DNA of 63,098 nucleotides, counting the filler, from an uncultured Methanosarcinales archaeon (lineage in GTDB: Archaea > Nanobdellota > Nanobdellia > Woesearchaeales > CAYNLP01): the NCBI GenBank assembly GCA_964398115.1. It is 3 parts of 3 records of this genome, joined end to end, with 100 filler letters (N's around TTAATTAATTAA, not from the genome) between each part and the next. Parts side by side here need not be neighbours in the genome. Positions count along the whole stretch, not along the records: positions 30,045 to 58,324 come from CAYNLP010000011.1; 2 more parts are not named here. One strand, given 5' to 3'. Below the pieces are notes generated by a model. It saw only the letters and a list, made by a program, of their open reading frames with translations. It was not told where the DNA came from and searched no databases. The position numbers and the translations under genes were made by a program. Shown in pieces: positions 4,036 through 50,027 of this stretch (position 1 is its first letter; each line of letters starts with the position of its first letter).

Positions 4036-5076
4036 ATGATAGAACTTAATGGTTCTTATGGAGAAGGTGGAGGAGCTGTTCTTAGGCAAGCGATTGCTTT
4101 CAGTTTGCACACTCAAAAGTCTTTCCATATGGAGAACGTCAGAATTGACAGAGAAAATCCTGGTGTGAAAATGCAGCACTTGAAAGCTTTGAATGCTGCT
4201 CAACAAATAAGCAACGCTAAAGTAGAAGGTAATCGTGAAGGAAGTACTGAAGTCACTTTTGAGCCGGAGACTTTGAAAGGTAGCAGTTTAAAAATCGATA
4301 TTGAAACTGCGGGTAGTATTACCTTATTGTTGCAAGCTTTGATGATGCCAGCTGTTCTTAGTTTACAAAAGTTCAAGTTTGAAATTGAAGGTGGTACTGA
4401 TGTGAAATGGTCTCCTCCGATTGATTATTATCAGAACGTTTTCTTACCGCATTTAAAGAAATTTGGAGACGTATCTTTGGACTTACAAAAAAGAGGGTAT
4501 TATCCTAAAGGTGATGGTAAGGTTAAAGTTGTTGTTGAAGGTAATGGAGATCCTGAAATGCCTATAAGATTGGCTGAACAGAAGGAATTGTTTCAGATAA
4601 AAGGTGTTAGTCATGCGAGTCGAGACTTGGCTGGAAGAGAAGTGAGTGAAAGACAGGCTAAAAGTGCTGAGCTTATACTTTCAGATATTGACGTCCCTGT
4701 TGATATAAGGAGGGAGTATAGTCGAACGTCAAGTACGGGTTCTGGAGTGGTTTTATGGAGTGTTTACGGTGATGACGATGGTGTAGATTTTGACAACCCA
4801 GTTATTCTTGGAGGGGATAGTTTGGGTGAGCCGAAGAAGAAAGCGAGTGAAGTTGGTGAACAAGCTGCGAAAGAATTGATGTCTGAAATGAAGAGTGGTG
4901 CTGGTGTTGACAAATACACAGCTGATCAAATAATTCCATACCTTGCTTTCAGCGGTGGTAGTGTAAAAACTAGTGAAATAACTGACCATACTAGGTCTAA
5001 CATTTACGTTGCTGAGAAATTCACCAATGCTAGCTTTGAAATTGATGGACAGGTTGTTAAGTGTTCACTCGGTTAA
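4036..5076 (+). CDS. rtcA: RNA 3'-terminal phosphate cyclase
   Basis: GSYGEGGG, GGTDV, RGYYPKG, DQIIPY and TDHTRSN motifs; start placed at ATG 4036. Confidence 0.95.
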   Translation: MIELNGSYGEGGGAVLRQAIAFSLHTQKSFHMENVRIDRENPGVKMQHLKALNAAQQISNAKVEGNREGSTEVTFEPETLKGSSLKIDIETAGSITLLLQALMMPAVLSLQKFKFEIEGGTDVKWSPPIDYYQNVFLPHLKKFGDVSLDLQKRGYYPKGDGKVKVVVEGNGDPEMPIRLAEQKELFQIKGVSHASRDLAGREVSERQAKSAELILSDIDVPVDIRREYSRTSSTGSGVVLWSVYGDDDGVDFDNPVILGGDSLGEPKKKASEVGEQAAKELMSEMKSGAGVDKYTADQIIPYLAFSGGSVKTSEITDHTRSNIYVAEKFTNASFEIDGQVVKCSLG

Positions 5077-7626
5077 CATGGCTAAGTTTATGTCGTCGTA
5101 TATTTCTCGGATGGCGTAGTAAACACTTGATTTTTCTTTTCCTTCAAAGTCTGCATCGCTGTACGCATCTTTCAAATCATAGTATTTCTCTTTTGCTTCA
5201 TCTAACTTTCCTTTTTCTATCAGCATACGACATTCTTTTATGAGTCTATAAACGTGTGGATTAGTTCTTTGATCTTCTGGTGGTAAGTGTGCTTCTAATT
5301 CTGCCATAGGGTCGCTACTTGCTTTCTTTATATCTCTGTCAAATTTTGTCTCTACTTTCTTTTCTTTCTTCTTTGGTTTTTTAGAAGTTTTAGACTTAGA
5401 TTTAGTTTTTGTTTTTGACTTCGCGCTTTTTTTCATTTCTTGTTGTGCTTGTTCTAACCTGCTTATTTCTTCTTCTAGTTGTTTCTTTTCATCTCTGTAT
5501 GCAGCGGCTGCTTCTTCCTCTGCTTTTCTCTTTTCTTCTAACTTGTCGATGTTTTCTTTGAGCTCTTGAATTCTTTCTTCAGCTCTCCTTTCTTCTTCTT
5601 TTAATTCTTCTTTTCGTTGTTCTAATTCTTTTTCTAATTCTTGAATTTCTTTTTCTCTTTCATCTAGTCTTTGACTAGAGTTTTCTAGTCTTTCTTTTCT
5701 TTCTTGAAGTTTTTGTTCTTTTCTGTTAATCTCGGCTTCTCTGTTTTCTAGCCTGTTATCCCATTCTTCTAATTCGTGTTTTTTACCGTCAAGTTTTTCT
5801 CTTTCTTCTTCAATATCTGAATAGATTTCGTCTTTTCTTTCTTCAAACGCTTGTTTTTCTTCTTCTAGTTCTTGTCGTTCTTGTTCTATCTCGTTTAGTT
5901 TTTGTTCTTTTTCTTGTTCGAACTTTTCTCTTTCTCTTTGTATTTCTTCTCTCTTCTGTTCGAGATCTTCTTCAACTTCTTCTCTTTTATTTTGTATTTG
6001 TTCTTGGAATTCCTGTCTTTGCTGTTCTAGTTCTTCTTCATGTTTTCTCTTTTCTTCTTCTAACTCTTCCTGATGTTTCCTTCTTTCTTCTTCAAGTTCT
6101 TGTTGGTGTTCTTTTCTTTCTCTTTCTATCTGTTGTTGTAATTCTTCTTTCTTACTTTGTACGTGGTCTTCAACTTCTTCATGTCTGTTATTAATATCTT
6201 CCTCTCTCTTGTTAAGGTGGTCTTCCCACTCTTGAAGTTCTTGTTCTCTCTGTTCAATTTGTTGTTGTCTTTCTTCCAACTCTTGCTGTTTCTGTTCTAG
6301 TTCTTCTTGCTTTTTTTCTACCTCTTCCAGCCTGGTTTCATATTCGTGTTTTTCATCTTGTAACTCTCTTTTCCTTCTTTCAAGTTCTTCTCTTTTTTCT
6401 TGCAGGTTGTCAGCAGCTTTTCCTAGTTTTATCTTTTCAATCTCGTTTTGTATTTGTTCATGATGATCCTCTAGTATTTGTTTGAGTTCGTGTCTAGCTT
6501 TTTTATTCCGGATTTTCTCCGCGATTTTTTCATGTTCTAGCGCGTCTTCAACCCAGTTTGCAAAGTCGTTACGGTCTTCTGTCACGTGATGTTGGAATGT
6601 TTCCTCATCCATTTCTTCTAGTGCATTCATTAAGTCGTGGAGATCTTTCAACCTTTCTCCGTTTTTCAATACAAATTGGTGTTCTGGATGAGCTTCTTTT
6701 GAGAAAATATCTTTTTCGCTTATATCTTCAGGATGTTCTATTATTTCTCTTACTAGCTTTTCGAAATCGTCTTCTGCTTCTTTTATTTCTTCAGGGCTTG
6801 GTTCTTCTTCTACTCCTTTTTCTCCTTCTAAACCTAGCATGTCTTCTTTTTCTCCTTCTGCTTCTGGCTCTTCAGGAGGGGTTATTTGACCTTCGTCTCC
6901 AAAGTCTTCTTTACTTGCTTTTTCTAGTTGGCTTTCTAAGTTTTCTTCTGTACCTTCTGGCTTTTCTGGTTGTTTGAAATCGTCTTCCATGTCTTTTTCG
7001 AATTCTTCAGGGTCTTTGGTGAAGTCTATTTCTTCAGAACTTTCTTCTTGTGTTTCTTCAGTACTGGGTTGTTCTATTTCTTCTGGTTCTTGATTTTCAG
7101 TAGTTGGTTCTTCTATTTTTTCGGGTGGTTCTTGTATGTCAGTTTCTTTTTCTGAGCTTTCTTCTGACATTGGTGGTTTTTCAGGTTTTTCTGGAGGTTG
7201 CTGTATGTCAGTTTCTTCTTCAGAAGTTTCTTCTGGAAGTGGTGGTTTTTCTAAATCTTCTTCTGGTTCTTCTATATCTTCTGGCGTTGGTGGTTCTTCT
7301 TCAAACTCTTCAGTACTTGTCTTTTCAGGGCTTGGAGGGGTTTCATCTATATCTTCTTCAATTTCTGGAAGATCTTTTTCTTCTTTTGGAGGTGTGGGGG
7401 GTTTTGTCCCTTCCATTCCTAGTCTTTTCTTAACGCTGTCCATTTCTTTTTCTATTTCGTTTGTCATATTTTCTACGTCTTCTTGAGCGCTTTCTTTGAA
7501 TTTGGGTGGAGATTGTAGTTCTTGTGTATTTCCTTCTCTAGTTGTTTCACCTTCAGAGTCGTCTTTGTTGAATATTTTTGAGAATAAGCCGCCTTTTTTG
7601 TCACTGAGTAATTTGTCGAAATTCAT
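5065..7626 (-). CDS. Large acidic protein: Pro/Glu-rich region, DUF5752-like domain, ~350-aa coiled coil, helical C-terminal module
   Basis: FVLKNG..L..L..L..AL..M....F..HV....NDFANWV pattern; long E/K/R/Q coiled-coil repeats. Confidence 0.75.
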   Translation of the reverse strand: MNFDKLLSDKKGGLFSKIFNKDDSEGETTREGNTQELQSPPKFKESAQEDVENMTNEIEKEMDSVKKRLGMEGTKPPTPPKEEKDLPEIEEDIDETPPSPEKTSTEEFEEEPPTPEDIEEPEEDLEKPPLPEETSEEETDIQQPPEKPEKPPMSEESSEKETDIQEPPEKIEEPTTENQEPEEIEQPSTEETQEESSEEIDFTKDPEEFEKDMEDDFKQPEKPEGTEENLESQLEKASKEDFGDEGQITPPEEPEAEGEKEDMLGLEGEKGVEEEPSPEEIKEAEDDFEKLVREIIEHPEDISEKDIFSKEAHPEHQFVLKNGERLKDLHDLMNALEEMDEETFQHHVTEDRNDFANWVEDALEHEKIAEKIRNKKARHELKQILEDHHEQIQNEIEKIKLGKAADNLQEKREELERRKRELQDEKHEYETRLEEVEKKQEELEQKQQELEERQQQIEQREQELQEWEDHLNKREEDINNRHEEVEDHVQSKKEELQQQIERERKEHQQELEEERRKHQEELEEEKRKHEEELEQQRQEFQEQIQNKREEVEEDLEQKREEIQREREKFEQEKEQKLNEIEQERQELEEEKQAFEERKDEIYSDIEEEREKLDGKKHELEEWDNRLENREAEINRKEQKLQERKERLENSSQRLDEREKEIQELEKELEQRKEELKEEERRAEERIQELKENIDKLEEKRKAEEEAAAAYRDEKKQLEEEISRLEQAQQEMKKSAKSKTKTKSKSKTSKKPKKKEKKVETKFDRDIKKASSDPMAELEAHLPPEDQRTNPHVYRLIKECRMLIEKGKLDEAKEKYYDLKDAYSDADFEGKEKSSVYYAIREIYDDINLAMLTE

Positions 7627-22598: not shown

Positions 22599-23199
22599 AT
22601 GAAAGTTGGAATACTCTCAGACAGTCATAACAACAAAGATAATTTGAAGACTGCCATGAACGGATTGAAAGACTGCGAAGTACTAATACACTGTGGTGAT
22701 CACTGCAACGACACCATGATTAAAGCTTTGTCAAATTTCAATGGAAAAGTTCACACCTGCCTTGGAAATATGGACCGTAGAAGTTTGAAAGAGGTAAAAG
22801 TTGAAGGTGTAAAAATGCATGGGGGGAAAGGAAGTATAAAAGTTGATGATAAAAACGTTTTCTTCAACCATTATCCTAGAAAAGCTGAGGAAATGGCAGA
22901 AACAGGGGAGTAAGTAATGAAACCCTGTTTCTTAAAACAAAATAATTATGAAACAAAACGATGTATTTTGGGGTGTCATCCCCCGCCAAAATATCAATGT
23001 TAAAGTCGGAACAGATATATATAGAAAAGAAGCGGATCATCTGTATCNNNNNNNNNNCGGCCACACCCACATTGCGAGGAAAGAAAGAATAAAAAAGACG
23101 TGGGTTGTAAATCCAGGTGAGATAGTTGGACGAAAAGGAAAACCTTCATATGCAGTATACGATACAGAAAAGGACGAAGTAAAAATCATTGGATTCTGA
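22599..23199 (+). CDS. YfcE/MJ0936-family metallophosphoesterase, interrupted by a >=136-bp insert and an assembly gap
   Basis: SDSH, HCGD, GNMD and NHYP before 22911; GHTH and NPG after the gap at 23048-23057. Confidence 0.85.
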
Positions 23200-29944: not shown

Positions 29945-30044
29945 NNNNNNNNNNNNNNNNNNNNNNNNNNNNNNNNNNNNNNNNNNNNTTAATTAATTAA
30001 NNNNNNNNNNNNNNNNNNNNNNNNNNNNNNNNNNNNNNNNNNNN
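29945..30044. other. Artificial contig linker
   Basis: N-run / TTAATTAATTAA (stop codons in all six frames) / N-run, 100 nt. Confidence 0.97.
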
Positions 30045-32543: not shown

Positions 32544-32894
32544 ATGGAATACGTATACGCTGCAATGTTGCTTCACAAAACTGGTCAAGACGTCACTGAA
32601 GAATCAGTCACTGACGTCCTAGAAGCCGCAGGTGCAAGTCCAGACGAAGGCAGAGTAAAAGCCTTAGTCGCTGCACTAGACGGCGTTGACATAGACGAAG
32701 CAATAGAGCAGGCGGNNNNNNNNNNCGCCCCAGCAGCTCCAAGCGGAGGATCCAGCGGAGGCGCCCCAAGCGGCGACGAAGCAGAAGAAGGAGAATCCGA
32801 CGAAGCTGAATCCGACGAAAGCGGCGAGCCGGAAGAAGAGGACGACGTCTCTGAAGAAGAGGCGGCTGAAGGCCTCGGAAACCTGTTCGAATAA
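32544..32894 (+). CDS. rpl12: Ribosomal protein L12p (P1); contains a 10-N gap
   Basis: [11 protein letters not shown] start; AAEGLGNLF end; GGAGG Shine-Dalgarno. Confidence 0.96.
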
Positions 32895-39916: not shown

Positions 39917-41476
39917 ATGGTACTAGGAATAAAAGATCGCAGTAAAAAACTCGTAAAATACGGCTTTATCAAAGATTCTGCCAAGGATAAGTATGAATAC
40001 GATGAAACTAAAGGCTACTATGTAAGGAAAGAAGGTGATCCAGAAAACTACGATCCGAGCCACGCCGATGAGGAAAGACATGAAGAAAGCCCTGTCCTTC
40101 CAGGATTCTTCGGACCAAACGTTGAATACGTCAAAACAGGATACCCCGACACTCCTAAAAAATACAGGCTGATATACAAAAGTCCAAGTGCAAGCCTAGA
40201 AGAAAGCTACTACTGGATTCTCGACAGTTTCAGAAGAGACCTAGGATTTCCACACTTCAAGAAAATAACTGACATTTTCAGCGCGAGCGAACAAAGCAGT
40301 ATGTGGGGACAAGCACAACAAAGACTCGGCCTACAGCAGGATAGAGCAAGAGAATACATGGCCACAATAGGAAAAATGACAAAAGACCTCTTCCAACTCG
40401 TTAGAGAATTAAGAATAATAGAAGAAAGACTTGAACTATATCAGAAAGCACCAAAGAGTCATAGCGCAGACGTCAGCCTCAAAGGACTATATATCGACAT
40501 GGTAGAAGGAGGAGCGAAAAACCCAAGCTCGGTATACGGAATAGCACAGCAAGTAGGATTTACAAGTCTACCCGATCTTTTCTTCAACACACATATACAT
40601 GACAAATCCAAAGTGGATGAAAAAGTAGACAATATGAAATACAATACGCAAGTGAAAAACGTGTTGAAAAGAAAACTATACAGCTTCTTAAACTGGAAAG
40701 AAAGAACACATGACGAACTCAAAAGTAGATTCAAATTCACACTACGCTATTTAAGACAACATTGGGGCACAATAAAAATGTATATGAACTGGGTCAAGCC
40801 ATATATGAAAAACGTTCAAAGAATGAGAATGAGCGAAGAACACATGGAAGATGAAGAAATAATAAGCAGTTTCGAAACAAGCATTACCGAAGTAGAAGTC
40901 CTAGCAATGCAACCCAAGAAGAAAGGAATACACCCGTGCGTATTGATAAGCATGAGATACACCACCCAACCAGAGATGAACTACAGCCAAGAACAATACC
41001 AACACAGAGGACCACTCCACATAGGACAGGTAGAGTTCCACCTACGAGCTTATGGATGGACAGAGCACGATATTGAAATGTTCCAAAAGCTAAAGAGAGA
41101 TGAAGACATGGAACTCATAAAAATAATTGACGATAGCGTAGCCGCAGCTATGGACGCTTTAGGAGATGACCTTTACAAATATTTAGACAAGGCAGATGAA
41201 AAACTAGAAAAATACGGTATAGAATGGGGAGAAGAAGAGGAAGAAGAAAGGCCGGAAGGAGGATTTGGGGACGTAGCCAAACCTTTCACAAGCATTTTCG
41301 GAGGTTTTAAAGAATTATTCGGAGCGTTCGGAGTGCAAAAAATGTTTGAAAGCAAAAGCGAAGGTACAAATAGACCTTCACTATCCACAAAGAAAGACAT
41401 TGCCCACGACGTGTTTGCACCAATGTGGATAACCTACAAGAATTACAAGAAAAGTCATGGAATGCTAGCTTGGTAA
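39917..41476 (+). CDS. Uncharacterised 519-aa soluble protein
   Basis: Long ORF, mixed alpha/beta with helical insert; no family recognised. Confidence 0.75.
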   Translation: MVLGIKDRSKKLVKYGFIKDSAKDKYEYDETKGYYVRKEGDPENYDPSHADEERHEESPVLPGFFGPNVEYVKTGYPDTPKKYRLIYKSPSASLEESYYWILDSFRRDLGFPHFKKITDIFSASEQSSMWGQAQQRLGLQQDRAREYMATIGKMTKDLFQLVRELRIIEERLELYQKAPKSHSADVSLKGLYIDMVEGGAKNPSSVYGIAQQVGFTSLPDLFFNTHIHDKSKVDEKVDNMKYNTQVKNVLKRKLYSFLNWKERTHDELKSRFKFTLRYLRQHWGTIKMYMNWVKPYMKNVQRMRMSEEHMEDEEIISSFETSITEVEVLAMQPKKKGIHPCVLISMRYTTQPEMNYSQEQYQHRGPLHIGQVEFHLRAYGWTEHDIEMFQKLKRDEDMELIKIIDDSVAAAMDALGDDLYKYLDKADEKLEKYGIEWGEEEEEERPEGGFGDVAKPFTSIFGGFKELFGAFGVQKMFESKSEGTNRPSLSTKKDIAHDVFAPMWITYKNYKKSHGMLAW

Positions 41477-41509: not shown

Positions 41510-42127
41510 ATGGTCAGGCAAGATCATGAAAGACGATTACATCTTCTAGAAAGATTACAGGAAGAAAAAGAAAAGACAGAGGAAGAACTGCAACAACTTG
41601 AAGAAGAAAAGAAGGAAGAACTGGAAAATATAGAAGATCAATTAGAAAACTTGATAGTAGAATTAATGGAGACTGAAGAAGAAATAATTCTTTCTCGAGA
41701 AGAAGATGAAGAAACTGAAGAAGACGAGTCAGATGAATCCGAAGAAGAGCCTGAAAGTTTGGAAGAAACAATACAAACCCAAAGGAGTCAACAGCAAAGA
41801 AGAGAAGGCGGGCCAGTGTATGAGATGAACACTAGCGAAGTTGAAGAAATGGTTCAAAACTTGGGCGACGTATACGATAATGTCAGACAAGCAGTAGAAG
41901 GAGAAGCAGACGAATTCCACGTAGACAGGGCAAGACAAATGATATATGAACTCACAAACGCTCCTGCAGAAGCACAGCAATTCAGTGATGAAGCCCAACA
42001 AGCCATCGCGGAGGATCAAGAAGACCAACAATACATGCAACGACTAAACACCTTAATAGAAACTTTTGAACAAGGAACAGAAAAAGGAATGTACCAAAGC
42101 AATAACAATCAACCTGACCACACATAA
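41510..42127 (+). CDS. Acidic coiled-coil hypothetical protein
   Basis: E-rich N-terminal coiled coil and disordered linker. Confidence 0.7.
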   Translation: MVRQDHERRLHLLERLQEEKEKTEEELQQLEEEKKEELENIEDQLENLIVELMETEEEIILSREEDEETEEDESDESEEEPESLEETIQTQRSQQQRREGGPVYEMNTSEVEEMVQNLGDVYDNVRQAVEGEADEFHVDRARQMIYELTNAPAEAQQFSDEAQQAIAEDQEDQQYMQRLNTLIETFEQGTEKGMYQSNNNQPDHT

Positions 42128-42167: not shown

Positions 42168-44105
42168 ATGAAATTTAACCAAAGCTACTATCACAGCATG
42201 GACCGAGGATACCATATAGAAGAAGGAGAACAAAGCAGCGACGACCTCGATCCAAATCCCCACGGGGCGATGTCAGAAAGTAGCTACGGAGTAGACGAGA
42301 TAGGATTTGGCAGTAATCCTTTCCAAAGACCAATAGAAGCAGTAAACGCCAGGTTAAAACAAGGAGTCGGATACATCGACATACCATTCTTCGGACAAGG
42401 AAAAGGAAACAAAGAAAGATACACGCCAGAAAGTATTTCTAAAAAAGAAAGAAGAGACATCCGAGAACTCGCAGAGATAAACGAAGCAAAGATAAGCACA
42501 CACGCCAGCACAAACATACAAGGACTAGCAGGACTAAGCCAAGGAGGATTCAACGAACAACAAAGAGAAAACACATTAAAAGAAATAAAGAAAGCAATAG
42601 ACTTCGCAAGCGACATACAAGGCGGACCAGTAGTGTTCCACACAGGAGAATGGCCTAGACCATTTTCAGAAGCGAAATGGAACAAAGACAAAATGTTCGA
42701 AAACTATCCCGAAGAAGAAAACCAAGCCACACTACACATGGTAGACAAAAGAACAGGAGAAGTGAAAGGAACAGTAAGAAAAAGCGACACATTATACGCT
42801 CCAAAATACGCGACTGATGAAGAAGGAAACATTATTGATATAGAAGGAAACCCAATAGACCCAAGCGATCCTGAACAACTCTTCTACGCCAAGCCCAAAT
42901 TCAACGAAGAAGGCGAGCCAGAACTAGAAAGGTTAAAATGGAAAGATATAGAGCAAAGGGCTAAAGAAAGAGGAATAAAACCAGAAGAAGAATTCTTCAG
43001 AATAAACAAACAACAACAACTACTACAATCAGAAGGTCTCCAAGCACACTACCTAGGTAACTACGATGAACTAAGAGAACAAAGAGAAGCAATAAATGAA
43101 GCACTAGAATTTTATGAACAATTAGAAGATAGCATGCCAGAAGAAGAGAAATGGAAAATAATGAAAGAAAGATCGAAAATGCCAAGAGGACTTCAAGACT
43201 TAGGAATTTCAACTTCTACGGAAAGAAAAGAACCATCCGAGATTTTACAACAAGCAAAGGAAAGAATTGATCAGCAACTGGCTCATAGAGAAGAAACCGC
43301 GACTAGCTATAAAATGCAAGCAGAAAGAGCAAGAGAAGATTTTGAAAACATAGAGCCTATAGCAGATTATGGTTTAGAAAAAAGTGCAGATACTGTGGCG
43401 AGAGCGGCAAGGTATGCATGGCAAAAGACCAGGCAGAACAATCCTGAAAGGCCGATATATGTGAGTCCTGAAAGTTTCATGCCTGAACAATATGGAAGTC
43501 ATCCTGATGAGATTAGAGAATTGATAGATCAGTCAAGAGAACAATTCGTGGATGAGATGAAAGATACGTTTGGTGAAGCAAAAGCGAAAGAACTCGCGAA
43601 CGAGCATATAAAGGGCACGTTAGACGTTGGACACTTTAACATGTGGAGGCAACATTTTGATCCTGAAGGTAAGGATTTAAGCCCTGAACAAAAAGAGAAA
43701 GAATTTAACAAATGGTATCTAGAGCAAGTTGAAGATTTGGTTAAAAGCGGTAAGATAGGTCAAGTTCACATAACGGATAACATGGGATTTGACGATGAGC
43801 ATTTAAGTCCGGGAGAAGGAACAGTACCAATTGATGAAGTTATGGACATAATTGAAGAAGCTGACATGGATGACATAATCGTAGAAGCAGGAAGTTTCAA
43901 TCCAGTAGATGTGGTGGAAGACACTTTCAGCTACTTTGGAAGCCCGATATACGATGTGGCCAAAGGAGGGGGTGGAGGTAGAGGTGCAGGATTCCAACAA
44001 GTACATCAACAACATTTCGGCTACAATGCTCCGCCCTTCTATGTAGTGGGAGCATACGCACCAAGTAACGAGTGGAAACTGTGGAGTGAGGTGCAACTTG
44101 AATGA
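42168..44105 (+). CDS. Xylose-isomerase-like / AP-endonuclease-2 TIM-barrel metalloenzyme with ~240-aa insert and Gly-linked C-terminal tail
   Basis: Ligand series STHA, VFHTGE, SPESF, LDVGH, VHITDN..FDDEH and IVEAG. Confidence 0.85.
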   Translation: MKFNQSYYHSMDRGYHIEEGEQSSDDLDPNPHGAMSESSYGVDEIGFGSNPFQRPIEAVNARLKQGVGYIDIPFFGQGKGNKERYTPESISKKERRDIRELAEINEAKISTHASTNIQGLAGLSQGGFNEQQRENTLKEIKKAIDFASDIQGGPVVFHTGEWPRPFSEAKWNKDKMFENYPEEENQATLHMVDKRTGEVKGTVRKSDTLYAPKYATDEEGNIIDIEGNPIDPSDPEQLFYAKPKFNEEGEPELERLKWKDIEQRAKERGIKPEEEFFRINKQQQLLQSEGLQAHYLGNYDELREQREAINEALEFYEQLEDSMPEEEKWKIMKERSKMPRGLQDLGISTSTERKEPSEILQQAKERIDQQLAHREETATSYKMQAERAREDFENIEPIADYGLEKSADTVARAARYAWQKTRQNNPERPIYVSPESFMPEQYGSHPDEIRELIDQSREQFVDEMKDTFGEAKAKELANEHIKGTLDVGHFNMWRQHFDPEGKDLSPEQKEKEFNKWYLEQVEDLVKSGKIGQVHITDNMGFDDEHLSPGEGTVPIDEVMDIIEEADMDDIIVEAGSFNPVDVVEDTFSYFGSPIYDVAKGGGGGRGAGFQQVHQQHFGYNAPPFYVVGAYAPSNEWKLWSEVQLE

Positions 44106-44251
44106 CGTTGCGAGATGCCATGGCAGGTTTAGAAATGAAAGTAAGCGAAAACGTTACCTATGATCAAATACACAACGCACACCTGGGATTGCAACAATAC
44201 GTTACAAGTTATCAAATTTCCGACCTTTGGAGTAAAACACGGTTGGAATGA
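44102..44251 (+). CDS. 49-aa microprotein resembling the C-terminal tail of the upstream TIM-barrel protein (not in ORF track)
   Basis: MTLRDAMAGLEMKVSENVTYDQIHNAHLGLQQYVTSYQISDLWSKTRLE; ATGA overlaps with both neighbours. Confidence 0.8.
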   Translation: MTLRDAMAGLEMKVSENVTYDQIHNAHLGLQQYVTSYQISDLWSKTRLE

Positions 44252-44787
44252 TGGATCGAATTAATCATTTCAAAAGGATTAGAGAAAGATATGACGAAAT
44301 TTTTCAAGACAAAGTAAAGGATGGAGAGGTGCCCATGCGTAGCACCGATTACGGCTTCTTCGGCACCGCCTCTATATTCAATATTTTCGAATTCTTCCAG
44401 AAAATAAATTTAGAAAAATATGACAAATTCATTGATCTTGGAAGCGGAGATGGCCGCGTCGTACTCTTAGCTTCTCTTTTTACAGAAGCTGAAGGTGTTG
44501 AAGGGGATGAAAAATTAGTTAAGAAGAGTGAAGAAATACGTGATGAATTAGGTTTACAAGCAGAATTCCACTGTAAAGACTTCATGAATCACAACTTCTC
44601 AGATTACGACCTAATATTCATATATCCAGACAAAGCTTTCTTCAGATCACTAGAAGAGAAAATAGCACGTGAAGTCGAGGGAGAAGTTTTTGTTTACAAC
44701 CAAGTTTACCAACCGAGAAAGTTGAAAAAAGGTAAAACTGTTTGGGTAAATCAAATGCCTATAATTAAATACGAACCCGAAATATGA
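44248..44787 (+). CDS. Class I SAM methyltransferase (DLGSGDG type, resembling protein-Lys methyltransferases)
   Basis: FIDLGSGDGRVV, GVE and DLIFIY motifs. Confidence 0.85.
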   Translation: MMDRINHFKRIRERYDEIFQDKVKDGEVPMRSTDYGFFGTASIFNIFEFFQKINLEKYDKFIDLGSGDGRVVLLASLFTEAEGVEGDEKLVKKSEEIRDELGLQAEFHCKDFMNHNFSDYDLIFIYPDKAFFRSLEEKIAREVEGEVFVYNQVYQPRKLKKGKTVWVNQMPIIKYEPEI

Positions 44788-44832: not shown

Positions 44833-45699
44833 TTGGAATTGGAGTTTCCTGTTAAGAAACAAAGTTTACAAAACGCAGAAGACTACCCAGATGAAGATAT
44901 AGACATAGCGTATGACTTTGCTAAAAAAGTTCATGAAGAACTCTCTGGATTTATTAAAGCCTTAGTTCTGTTTGGAAGTGTAGCCAGGAATAAAAGCCCT
45001 GCAGATACGAAGAAGAAGAGTGAGTTAGGAGGGAAGATAACTGGTGAAGAAGGTGAAAAATCTGAAAGTAATGATATTGACATTCTGATAATAGTTGATG
45101 ATGTTAGTTTTAAACTTACTAAAGAACTGGTTCAGACCTATAGATTGATGGTTGAGAGGATGGTGAGACGGGTCAGTGATGACTTACACGTTATAACTTT
45201 GAAATTCACAAGCTTTTGGGAGTACGTAAGGTCAGGTGATCCCGTAGCGGTTAATGTTTTAAGAGATGGAGTTCCAATACTTGACACAGGATTTTTCGAA
45301 CCGTTACAGGCTTTGTTAAGCCAGGGGAGGATAAGGCCTAGTCCGGAAAGTGTTTGGAGTTATTTCAAGAAGGCGCCTAAGAGTTTGCAAAGTAGTAAGT
45401 GGCATATCAATCAAGCTGTTATAGATCTTTATTGGGCTGTTATCGACGCTGCTCATGCGGCTTTGATGAAGTTGAATGAGGTTCCTCCTAGCCCTGATCA
45501 CGTTAGTGAAATGATTGAGAAGAAGCTTGTAAAACCGGGTGTGGTAGATGCTAGATATGCTGAGATAATGCAGAAGTTTTATGATTTAATGAAGGATATA
45601 ACTCGTGGTGGTAAAAAAATTGATGGTGGTAAGTATGAAGAATTGTATGACGAGGCGAAGGATTTCGTTGACGAGATGGAAGATTTCTTAAATAGTTAG
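44833..45699 (+). CDS. Nucleotidyltransferase (MNT-like) fused to a HEPN-like helical domain; TTG start
   Basis: LFGS and DIDILII motifs; YWAVIDAAHAAL..PPSP helical domain with no Rx4-6H motif. Confidence 0.85.
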   Translation: MELEFPVKKQSLQNAEDYPDEDIDIAYDFAKKVHEELSGFIKALVLFGSVARNKSPADTKKKSELGGKITGEEGEKSESNDIDILIIVDDVSFKLTKELVQTYRLMVERMVRRVSDDLHVITLKFTSFWEYVRSGDPVAVNVLRDGVPILDTGFFEPLQALLSQGRIRPSPESVWSYFKKAPKSLQSSKWHINQAVIDLYWAVIDAAHAALMKLNEVPPSPDHVSEMIEKKLVKPGVVDARYAEIMQKFYDLMKDITRGGKKIDGGKYEELYDEAKDFVDEMEDFLNS

Positions 45700-47492: not shown

Positions 47493-49268
47493 TTATGATT
47501 TCAGAACAGCGCCCTTATCCGCTCTAACCACAACCTCCATACCATCCTCCAACCTTTCAGTAACGCTTCTAACATCCACCAAGACAGGAATCTCTTTTTC
47601 ATTAGCCTTTTCAATAACTTTTTTATCATAATTACTACTCGCCACAAGAACAGCACCAGCTTTGTCAAAAAATTCCTCATAACCACTGTCCAACTTGAAA
47701 AAGACAGCAATATCCCCTTCTTCAATTTTAGAAGCTTCCGAAGGCGACCTACAAATCTTAACCTTACCCTCAACCTTTCCTTTGCTAAACGGATATCCTT
47801 TAACCAAAACCTCACCCATTTTTATAACTCGCAAAGTATTTGTAGATCCGGGCACCCCAACAGGCGTCCCTGCAACTGAAACAATGCTGTCCCCTGGCTC
47901 TGCAAATCCTAATTTTTTTACCACTTCAGAAGCGTTTTCAAACAAACCTTCTATTGTATCAGCTTCTTCTTTCAAAACAGGTTGTACTCCCCACATCATA
48001 TGACATTGACGTACAACCCTCTTCCGAGGAGAAACCACCACTATAGGAACCTTAGGCCTGAACGCGCTCACATTTCTAGCCGTATGACCTGAATTACTAA
48101 AAGCTACGATGCATTCCGCATTTACGTTATAAGCTGTGTCAACCACTGCATGACATACAGAAGTAGTGACGTGACCTCTTGCGTCAAAATTTAAGTTGTA
48201 AAAAGCTTTTTGATAATCAATATCTCTTTCAGCAGATTTTATAGTACTTGCCATAGCCTTAACAGACTCTACAGGATAATCTCCCGTAGCGGTTTCTCCA
48301 GAAAGCATGACACAAGTCGTTCCCTGTCGTACAGCGTTATAAACATCACTCACCTCAGCCCTAGTAGGGGTAGGATTTTTTCTCATACTGTCTAACATTT
48401 CCGTAGCTGTAATAACCGTCTTTCTAGCCTCTAAAGCTCTATCTATTAATCTCTGCTGAGCGCCAGGAACAGAACTATAAGGTATTTCAACTCCTAAGTC
48501 TCCACGAGCAATCATTAAACCATCTGATAAGTCAAGAATTTCAGCCATGTTATTAACGCCCTCTTTATTCTCAATCTTAGAAATTATCTTAATATCTTCA
48601 CCACCATTCTCATCGATAAAACTTCTCGCTTTCACTACATTCTCTGCATTCCGAACGAAACTCAACGCAATGAAATCAGCGCCTTTCTCAATAGCAAACT
48701 TGATATCTTCTTTATCCTTTCTCGAAAGCGTGGGAAGTCTAATTTCAGCATTAGGCACATTAACACCTTTTCTACTTTCTAATTCACCGTTTGTCAACAC
48801 CTTAGTTTTTAAACGACTATCAAAAATTTCAACAACCTCTAACTCTATAGATCCATCATCAATGAGTATCTTCTGACCTTCTTCCACATCTTCAGTTAAA
48901 TAATCATACGTAACATAAATCTCCTCACTAGTACATCTTTCACCCTCTAAAACAGCAGCTTTACTGTCACAAATCAAATCTACAAAATCACCTTTTTCTA
49001 ATTCAATAAATGCTTCTTCATCTTCATCATATCCTTCTACAAAACCCGTCCGGATTTCAGGTCCTTTAGTATCAGCTAATAAAGGAATGAATTTATCTTC
49101 CTCTTTACGAGTCTTTTTTAACAAATTAATCGTTTTTTCATGCTGTTCCTTATTGCTATGAGAAAAATTTAGACGTGCAACATCCATACCTTCTTTCATC
49201 ATATCTGCTAACACATATCTATCATTCGTAGATGGTCCCAAAGTACAAATTATTTTCGTCTGTTTCAT
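47493..49268 (-). CDS. pyk: Pyruvate kinase with C-terminal swivelling-type domain
   Basis: TKIICTLGP, ARLNFSH, DTKGPEIR, KIEN, MIARGDLG and MLSGETA motifs. Confidence 0.96.
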   Translation of the reverse strand: MKQTKIICTLGPSTNDRYVLADMMKEGMDVARLNFSHSNKEQHEKTINLLKKTRKEEDKFIPLLADTKGPEIRTGFVEGYDEDEEAFIELEKGDFVDLICDSKAAVLEGERCTSEEIYVTYDYLTEDVEEGQKILIDDGSIELEVVEIFDSRLKTKVLTNGELESRKGVNVPNAEIRLPTLSRKDKEDIKFAIEKGADFIALSFVRNAENVVKARSFIDENGGEDIKIISKIENKEGVNNMAEILDLSDGLMIARGDLGVEIPYSSVPGAQQRLIDRALEARKTVITATEMLDSMRKNPTPTRAEVSDVYNAVRQGTTCVMLSGETATGDYPVESVKAMASTIKSAERDIDYQKAFYNLNFDARGHVTTSVCHAVVDTAYNVNAECIVAFSNSGHTARNVSAFRPKVPIVVVSPRKRVVRQCHMMWGVQPVLKEEADTIEGLFENASEVVKKLGFAEPGDSIVSVAGTPVGVPGSTNTLRVIKMGEVLVKGYPFSKGKVEGKVKICRSPSEASKIEEGDIAVFFKLDSGYEEFFDKAGAVLVASSNYDKKVIEKANEKEIPVLVDVRSVTERLEDGMEVVVRADKGAVLKS

Positions 49269-49795: not shown

Positions 49796-49954
49796 AGTGG
49801 AGAAAGTAATGAAGTAATTTAAGCTTTGCTGATAGCAATCTTTATAAACAATCCGCTTATTGTTTTCACTGTTTGGGCNNNNNNNNNNAACGTTTTTTAA
49901 AAATATGCAGTTCCGCAACCTTTATAAGAAACTCGTCGTTTCTCCACGACTGGA

Positions 49955-50027
49955 GGGCCCGTGGTCTAGTGGCTATGACGTCTCCCCGACACGGAGAAGG
50001 TCACCGGTTCGACTCCGGTCGGGCCCA
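49955..50027 (+). tRNA. tRNA-Val(GAC); CCA not encoded; C at position 33
   Basis: Acceptor GGGCCCG/CGGGCCC; anticodon arm TCTCC-CCGACAC-GGAGA; T arm ACCGG-TTCGACT-CCGGT; TATA (TTTATAA) at 49921. Confidence 0.95.

Follow-up and report, generated by a model that had tools for sequence, protein, structure and literature searches.

What is encoded in the narrow gap between two genes of an uncultured Woesearchaeales archaeon (assembly GCA_964398115.1), and does it amount to a gene of its own? The gap lies in a stretch of 63,098 nt, here called the window, within the part of it that comes from CAYNLP010000011.1 (positions 30,045 to 58,324), and it separates a gene for a xylose-isomerase-like TIM-barrel enzyme from a gene for a methyltransferase (MT). 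An open reading frame (ORF) of 49 codons, which we call the micro-ORF, occupies the whole of this gap, and reading of the ORFs and their junctions confirmed the arrangement described in an earlier reading of the DNA (the original prediction), with one ATGA overlap at the enzyme stop and another at the MT start. Judged by sequence comparison, the peptide of the micro-ORF is a diverged, free-standing copy of the C-terminal tail of the enzyme encoded directly upstream. The coordinates of the features are collected in Table 1.

Within the window, BLASTP of the peptide against its own enzyme paired peptide residues 20-49 with the final 37 enzyme residues, with 12 of 37 positions identical, two gaps and 20.4 bits (E=2e-4 for this single comparison), in a colinear alignment that reaches both C-termini. 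The Smith-Waterman score of 43 was reached by 0 of 20000 shuffles of the peptide against the last 75 residues of the enzyme and by 17 of 3000 shuffles against the whole enzyme, and among 1684 six-frame ORFs of the window the peptide was the best match to the tail, with a runner-up scoring 41 against 43. Taken from the window alone, this likeness, which the original prediction had seen by eye, is borderline to good and suggestive rather than conclusive; it is settled by the comparative data given below, namely the recurrence of such peptides, a tail profile anchored at the C-terminus and the alignment found at the related locus L050. What the peptide retains are the outer blocks of the tail, that is, an aromatic-xx-[IVE]...-G motif and the C-terminal hWSxxxLE, while the near-invariant middle block of the tail, YIVGAYxPSNEW, is degenerate. 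The motifs LWS and terminal LE are thus kept as had been claimed, but the HxxH motif named together with them did not hold up: among the best 120 of 176 enzyme homologues, position -33 is mostly R or H (R in 49, H in 43, Q in 9) and position -30 is His in 105, and HxxH is absent from the three other micro-ORFs (L050, L071 and L079) introduced below. The peptide is ~70% diverged from the tail in amino acids, and at the DNA level the two copies align weakly, in agreement with the divergence noted earlier. A word-index search of protein collections with the peptide found its own copy alone, the scores obtained with it in the ESM Atlas (0.82) were noise, and a single-sequence AF2 model of it, which as a one-sequence model carries little weight, shows two helices with a mean predicted local distance difference test (pLDDT) score of 78.5.

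The related loci were 80 of 332 stretches of GTDB genomes that encode a relative of the enzyme (L001-L080), and with the window they make 81. When the tail end, expressed as W[ST]xxx[LMFIV][EHDQ]-stop, was searched in six frames over these 734 kb, seven matches fell outside the enzymes, and four of them lay directly 3' of an enzyme stop, in the window, L050, L071 and L079; the Poisson expectation for this post-stop zone is 0.033, and the probability of three or more is 6e-6. The ORFs of L050, L071 and L079 have 42-43 codons, start 2 nt past the TAA of the enzyme gene and end in WSxxxLE-stop. A C-terminus-anchored profile built from 119 family tails, with the window's own tail left out, placed the four micro-ORFs at ranks 1-4 of 13828 stop-to-stop ORFs (25-150 aa), with scores of 33.8, 30.3, 29.0 and 24.5 and 21.2 for the next-best ORF, the peptide of the window being third. 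The L050 peptide also aligns with the tail of its own enzyme over 37 residues, 11 of them identical (E=8e-5, score reached by 4 of 5000 shuffles), and the five tails that score best against it among the 81 all belong to the L050 clade. It has the W..IE..Y.G of that clade, and the window peptide has the aromatic..[IV]H..H.G of its own. On a tree of the enzymes (78 of the 81 sequences, three partial ones having been dropped) the micro-ORF loci fall in three places, namely the window, L050, and L071 together with L079. An alignment of the four peptides used as search query added one further protein, P0124, which is identical to the L050 peptide at 34 of 43 positions without gaps and with both outer blocks intact. 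The regions downstream of the enzyme in 77 loci, scanned with stops allowed, contained no decayed tail copies, and true matches stood out in the window and L050 alone; L067 and L043, which scored above the null, were discarded as candidate remnants, being stop-ridden chance alignments.

The tail from which the peptide appears to derive belongs to a large enzyme family of Woesearchaeota and Nanoarchaeota whose members have 610-710 aa, and the same type of tail ends all 120 listed members. Its positions F(-37), HFGY(-30 to -27), YIVGAYxPSNEW(-21 to -10) and LWSEVPLE(-8 to -1) are each kept in ~70-97% of the 120, and the linker ahead of it varies across the family. The mean fraction of the top residue is 0.71 in the tail, as against 0.64 in the barrel and 0.49 in the large insertion of the enzyme, the tail ranks 39th in conservation among 609 windows of 37 residues, and between L071 and L079 its rate of non-synonymous substitution (dN) is 0.009 vs 0.028 for the whole enzyme gene. 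No family member among the 120 has a second tail, and no other large protein carries one, the 81 enzymes being the sole scorers among 815 larger ORFs. In an AF2 model of the enzyme based on 120 sequences (mean pLDDT 89.3, ~95 in the barrel), residues 597-603 and 624-645 have a pLDDT below 50 and the tail is unplaced in the monomer. A segment that is highly conserved yet unplaced in a monomer model is what would be expected of one that docks in trans, so that, with free copies at 4 of 81 loci, the data support the earlier proposal that the tail acts as an autonomous module, and the model would make it a key interaction element of the enzyme family. The tail ends in Glu in 110 of the 120 members and in His in the other 10; these ten carry Phe for Trp at position -10, and a search of the barrel for residues co-varying with this Glu-to-His switch (10 of 120 proteins) gave no compensating change and no pointer to a docking site. 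The N-terminus of the enzyme (residues 1-16, positions 42168-42215, consensus MxFxxxYYxxxDRxY) is, like the tail, conserved in the family yet has a pLDDT below 50, and the two might work jointly.

The codon usage of the micro-ORF is gene-like. Its log-odds score of 10.1 lies at the 23rd percentile of real gene windows (mean 14.1, sd 6.9), and just 2.1% of 679 off-frame windows that are open score as high; 9.3% of all off-frame windows of 48 codons in this genome are open by chance. Selection could be followed between L071 and L079, whose enzymes are 93.6% identical with a ratio of non-synonymous to synonymous rates (dN/dS) of 0.047 and a dS of 0.60, and whose peptides are 69% identical over 42 codons with dN 0.17, dS 0.34 and neither indels nor stops. 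The non-synonymous rate in the peptide (16/103.8) is far lower than the synonymous rate in the enzyme (178/432; p=4e-7), and a block of 36 nt, KFFYPEIMYSSC, is identical between the two micro-ORFs. In L079, an inserted MNT (Pol-beta nucleotidyltransferase)/HepT toxin-antitoxin pair (4589-5499 of that locus) separates the micro-ORF from the MT gene, and a segment of ~20 nt resembling the end of the micro-ORF is found again at the MT start, as might be left by duplication of the junction; by frame reading, the copy joined to the micro-ORF retains WSGLRLE-stop and the other keeps the MT reading alone. Taken together, the micro-ORF probably encodes a real small protein. Behind homologous enzyme genes, where the original prediction had suggested looking, intact copies were found at three further loci; their dN/dS is returned to below.

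As to how the micro-ORF might be expressed, an in-frame TGA at 44099-44101 blocks its extension upstream, and the true start could be later, since there are further in-frame ATGs at the two positions listed in Table 1; depending on the start codon the peptide has 38-49 residues, the size of a small single-module protein (<20 kDa). The Shine-Dalgarno-like hexamer GAGGTG that precedes it is also found 5' of the nucleotidyltransferase-like (NTase-like) gene downstream and of one other gene of the window, and as a ribosome-binding signal it is merely suggestive because the Glu-Val codons of the tail dictate it too. The MT gene, whose start overlaps the micro-ORF stop, is without a well-placed element of this kind. 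No terminator-like site was found between the genes on the + strand, and with genes on the same strand, overlapping or abutting starts and terminator-free junctions the layout is that predicted for coupled operon genes. An Rfam scan of the micro-ORF region matched no family, and RNA structure at the micro-ORF received no support (fold z-score 0.32). The micro-ORF also contains an imperfect direct repeat of 22 nt (77%; 44148-44169 and 44196-44217, 48 nt apart) that encodes two similar octapeptides and could be an internal duplication or chance.

The comparisons show an ORF that is homologous to the tail, recurs in the same position, has gene-like codons and keeps its frame in orthologues; from this we infer a route of duplication, a translated product, a tail that docks in trans, and competition. 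As a whole, this explanation, a translationally coupled microprotein derived from the tail and competing for the docking site of the tail, has in our estimate somewhat less than an even chance. The 3' end of the enzyme gene would have been duplicated at the junction with the downstream gene, giving the micro-ORF. A possible precursor is seen in L001, where frame reading suggests an MT start within the last enzyme codons, and a tandem duplication across such a junction would yield the arrangement of the window. The micro-ORF, with its ATG overlapping the enzyme stop or 2 nt past it, would be translated by coupling, the last codons of the enzyme providing its Shine-Dalgarno-like element, and in the window it may pass ribosomes on to the MT gene through the second ATGA overlap. 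The tail would be a flexible, conserved docking segment acting in trans, either on a second subunit or on a different protein of the conserved gene cluster, and the free peptide would occupy its docking site without the enzyme and so act as a competitive, microProtein-like modulator. Since the outer blocks are kept and the middle block is degenerate, the peptide would fill the docking site without bringing the enzyme there.

A number of observations weigh against this explanation. A local hidden Markov model (HMM) of the 119 family tails gives the peptide 7.1 bits and E=0.64 among 1685 ORFs of the window, which is chance level, and the same model also failed to detect the peptides of L050, L071 and L079. 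A full HMMER search of 1.84 billion representatives returned no recognisable homologue of the window peptide, with two repeat proteins as its matches; these, P0122 and P0123, were rejected as spurious, their scores arising from a short chance match that is repeated 7-14 times. (P0122, of 854 aa, consists of ~14 tandem 59-residue repeats, most with WSATRLE, and resembles a translated DNA tandem repeat.) The peptides of L071 and L079 share just the last 7-9 residues with the tails of their own enzymes, and for L071 BLASTP aligned nothing between peptide and tail. The micro-ORF dN/dS between these two loci is 0.51 and not significantly different from 1 (p=0.22), and the peptide changes at roughly six times the rate of the enzyme (dN 0.17 vs 0.028). 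The AF2 model, which leaves the tail unplaced, yields no docking site. Finally, the micro-ORF is present in just 4 of 81 loci, in three lineages. It is missing from L073, a sister of L071 and L079, and from L001, the closest relative for which DNA is available (51% enzyme identity), and absence from close relatives had been named beforehand as evidence that would count against the idea; the enzymes of P0002-P0005, at 51-62% identity by BLASTP, are closer relatives known as protein.

The same observations bear on other explanations. As the main alternative, the micro-ORF may be a relic, at most a spacer, left when a partial duplication or illegitimate recombination, for example on acquisition of the MT gene, copied the enzyme gene's 3' end; the peptide would then be inert, and its frame would stay open by chance or because translation of the downstream gene needs ribosomes passing through. 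We regard this as somewhat unlikely. The fraction of off-frame windows open by chance, the dN/dS that is not significantly below 1, the rapid divergence and the patchy distribution would all be in keeping with it, as would the overlapping MT gene with no well-placed Shine-Dalgarno-like element, the otherwise uncommon MT gene at three of the four micro-ORF loci, and the MT gene of L001 that abuts or overlaps the enzyme end in a possible starting layout for duplication. Yet all four copies are intact, with the start codon at most 2 nt from the enzyme stop and no broken copies found, and the WSxxxLE end is kept where no gene follows or overlaps it, in L050 and, after the insertion, in L079. A relic would likewise not be expected to conserve between orthologues exactly the outer blocks, or to show gene-like codon usage despite its amino-acid divergence from the tail. 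That the ORF is spurious and its tail likeness a coincidence is hardly credible to us: the best chance ORF of the window scores close behind it and the local HMM rates it at chance level, but four loci occupy the top four ranks of the anchored profile with a positional P of 6e-6, and L050 provides a second, independent full-length alignment. Two other origins were set aside. Read-through or frameshift fusion to the enzyme was rejected because frame reading puts the peptide of the window in the -1 frame and those of L050, L071 and L079 in the +1 frame, and because two tails occur in no family member, and a 3' end displaced by an integrative element because the remnant would be expected at the far end of the insert and not directly after an intact gene.

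The neighbouring MT could instead be what the tail serves, its end being a site of MT docking or modification and the peptide a co-expressed adaptor, decoy or substrate, much as chemoreceptors tether CheR through their C-terminal pentapeptides. In the window the micro-ORF appears translationally coupled to the MT gene, in L071 it overlaps the MT start, and the MT gene, found in 10 of the 80 related loci (11 of 81 with the window), is present at three of the four micro-ORF loci (hypergeometric p=0.007, or 0.04 with the sister pair collapsed). The MT itself weakly matches a model of archaeal protein-lysine MTs and structures of the histone methyltransferase DOT1L, but among PDB entries an RNA methyltransferase matches it best. 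We consider this reading distinctly unlikely, given that all 81 enzymes carry the tail and so few loci have an MT gene nearby, that L050 has a micro-ORF with no MT gene within 4 kb, that eight loci have the MT gene without a micro-ORF, and that the four peptides have no Lys or Arg position in common. A metal-type TIM barrel, a small peptide and an MT side by side also call to mind, by analogy alone, the peptides that are made on ribosomes and modified after translation (RiPPs), the tail being a self-substrate and the micro-ORF a precursor modified by an MNIO-like barrel, a borosin-like MT or both, as the original prediction had speculated. Neither half of this comparison survived: a Pfam scan at E<=0.1 gives the enzyme PF01261 alone and no DUF692, and the MT is of the DOT1-like class I kind, a family different from that of the borosin enzymes, while the tail sits on the TIM barrel and not on the MT. 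In addition, 77 of 81 loci have no peptide gene, no gene for a protease, a transporter or a recognition element was seen in the cluster, and the core of the peptide varies freely with the ends alone kept, so a RiPP-like role is very improbable.

Table 1. Features of the micro-ORF locus, in positions of the window
Feature	Position	Strand	Basis or remark
519-aa protein, first gene of the conserved cluster	39917..41476	+	without assigned family
205-aa acidic, coiled-coil-like protein	41510..42127	+	ORF call
645-aa xylose-isomerase-like TIM-barrel enzyme with large insertion	42168..44105	+	PF01261, E=1.6e-16
Gly-rich linker preceding the tail, enzyme residues 600-608	43965..43991	+	sequence reading
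Conserved 37-residue C-terminal tail module, enzyme residues 609-645	43992..44102	+	conservation across 120 members
Shine-Dalgarno-like GAGGTG	44088..44093	+	8 nt 5' of the first ATG of the micro-ORF
Micro-ORF, 49 codons (49 aa)	44102..44251	+	alternative in-frame starts 44120, 44135
Tail-like part of the micro-ORF, residues 20-49	44159..44248	+	BLASTP and Smith-Waterman alignments
179-aa DOT1-like class I S-adenosylmethionine-dependent methyltransferase (MT)	44248..44787	+	PF08123, E=2.2e-8
288-aa Pol-beta-type nucleotidyltransferase-like (NTase-like) protein	44833..45699	+	weak PF18765 and PF01909 matches

The enzyme that carries the tail matches PF01261 with 61.2 bits against a cut-off of 31.1, which together with the barrel fold confirmed by Foldseek makes it xylose-isomerase-like. 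Foldseek on the model ranked 3wqo (MJ1311) first, followed by ketose 3-epimerases and endonuclease IV, and MJ1311 was also the sole solved structure found by sequence. The invariant or near-invariant residues of the enzyme, H112, H158, E435, D486, H489, H534, D543, H545 and E573, may correspond to the ligand pattern of the trinuclear metal site of E. coli endonuclease IV (H,H,E,DxxH,H,DxH,E). The 519-aa protein, the acidic protein of ~200 aa, the TIM barrel and the NTase-like protein form a conserved, uncharacterised cluster of Woesearchaeota and Nanoarchaeota. Of the 64 loci with over 2200 nt of sequence upstream of the enzyme gene, 61 have a homologue of the 519-aa protein, and in 55 of all 80 loci it lies on the same strand at most 1.5 kb upstream of the enzyme ORF; it is 49% identical to its counterpart in L071, had no match in Pfam, NCBIfam or PDB, and gave no usable match in the ESM Atlas. 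An ORF that likewise has 205 aa takes the place of the 205-aa protein in L071 and L079, with sequence similarity that is not significant, and the 205-aa protein matched no family. The NTase-like protein, which had no PDB match by sequence, has homologues at 63 of the 80 loci, and in most of these its gene comes right after that of the enzyme. A literature search on xylose-isomerase-like TIM barrels of Woesearchaeota and other DPANN archaea and on MJ1311 found no paper on the enzyme family or on such peptides. Elsewhere in the window are a 590-aa pyruvate kinase that has a PEP-utilising mobile domain at its C-terminus (47493-49268, - strand), a single tRNA gene (49955-50027, + strand) that is the sole Rfam match, and runs of N totalling 206 bases (23048-23057, 29945-29988, 30001-30044, 32716-32725, 49879-49888 and others) that represent masked or unresolved stretches.

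Among known systems, the proposed tail-derived modulator comes closest to the microProteins, small single-module proteins that are related to part of a larger protein and proposed to occupy its interaction surface (PMC9638782). The micro-ORF peptide resembles them in being a small single module related to a module of a larger protein. It would differ from the microProteins of plants and animals in being archaeal and in lying directly downstream of its parent gene, to which it appears coupled, and the copied module is a disordered C-terminal tail and not a folded dimerisation domain. That a protein fragment can bind a native interface and inhibit in vivo is reported in the FragFold study of bacterial proteins (PMC11831152); those fragments were laboratory-made, whereas here a fragment appears to be encoded in the genome as a separate gene, and more than once. 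The locus is like the split borosins in that a peptide occurs both fused to the C-terminus of an enzyme and stand-alone beside an MT gene, and it is unlike borosins in that the tail is borne by a TIM barrel, the MT is DOT1-like, and the tail is universal in the family while the peptide is rare. With the MNIO (DUF692) enzymes it has in common an enzyme next to a small peptide gene. MNIO enzymes and the present enzyme are both TIM barrels of related fold, but the enzyme has no DUF692 match and its nearest structures are MJ1311, the ketose 3-epimerases and endonuclease IV. MJ1311 (3wqo), which is D-tagatose 3-epimerase-like and the best fold match, has the segment H.HDN.GyDDEHL.G.G in common with the enzyme; at 293 aa it is without the ~260-residue insertion and without the conserved tail. 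What appears to be new here is a case in archaea, a derivation from a gene's 3' end, coupling to the parent and repeated occurrence.

The explanation could be extended to the cluster as a whole. The tail may be a portable docking or substrate peptide of a machine formed by the cluster, trans regulators of which would have been born repeatedly by duplication of the last 100-150 nt of the enzyme gene, a piece that brings a ready-made ribosome-binding site and a coupled start, and in some lineages the peptide would have been wired to a protein MT; we offer this tentatively and think it rather doubtful. If the proposed origin and role of the micro-ORF are true, it would be an example from nature of a small protein arising from the 3' end of the gene beside it, with the mechanism of its origin readable from sequence, and retained in genomes that delete anything useless. 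The tail would stand out as the key element of interaction in an abundant, uncharacterised enzyme family and its four-gene cluster, and the peptide would be a ready bait for the partner of the tail and hence for the function of the cluster. Short ORFs in the gaps of DPANN genomes would then become recognisable by their likeness to the ends of neighbouring genes.

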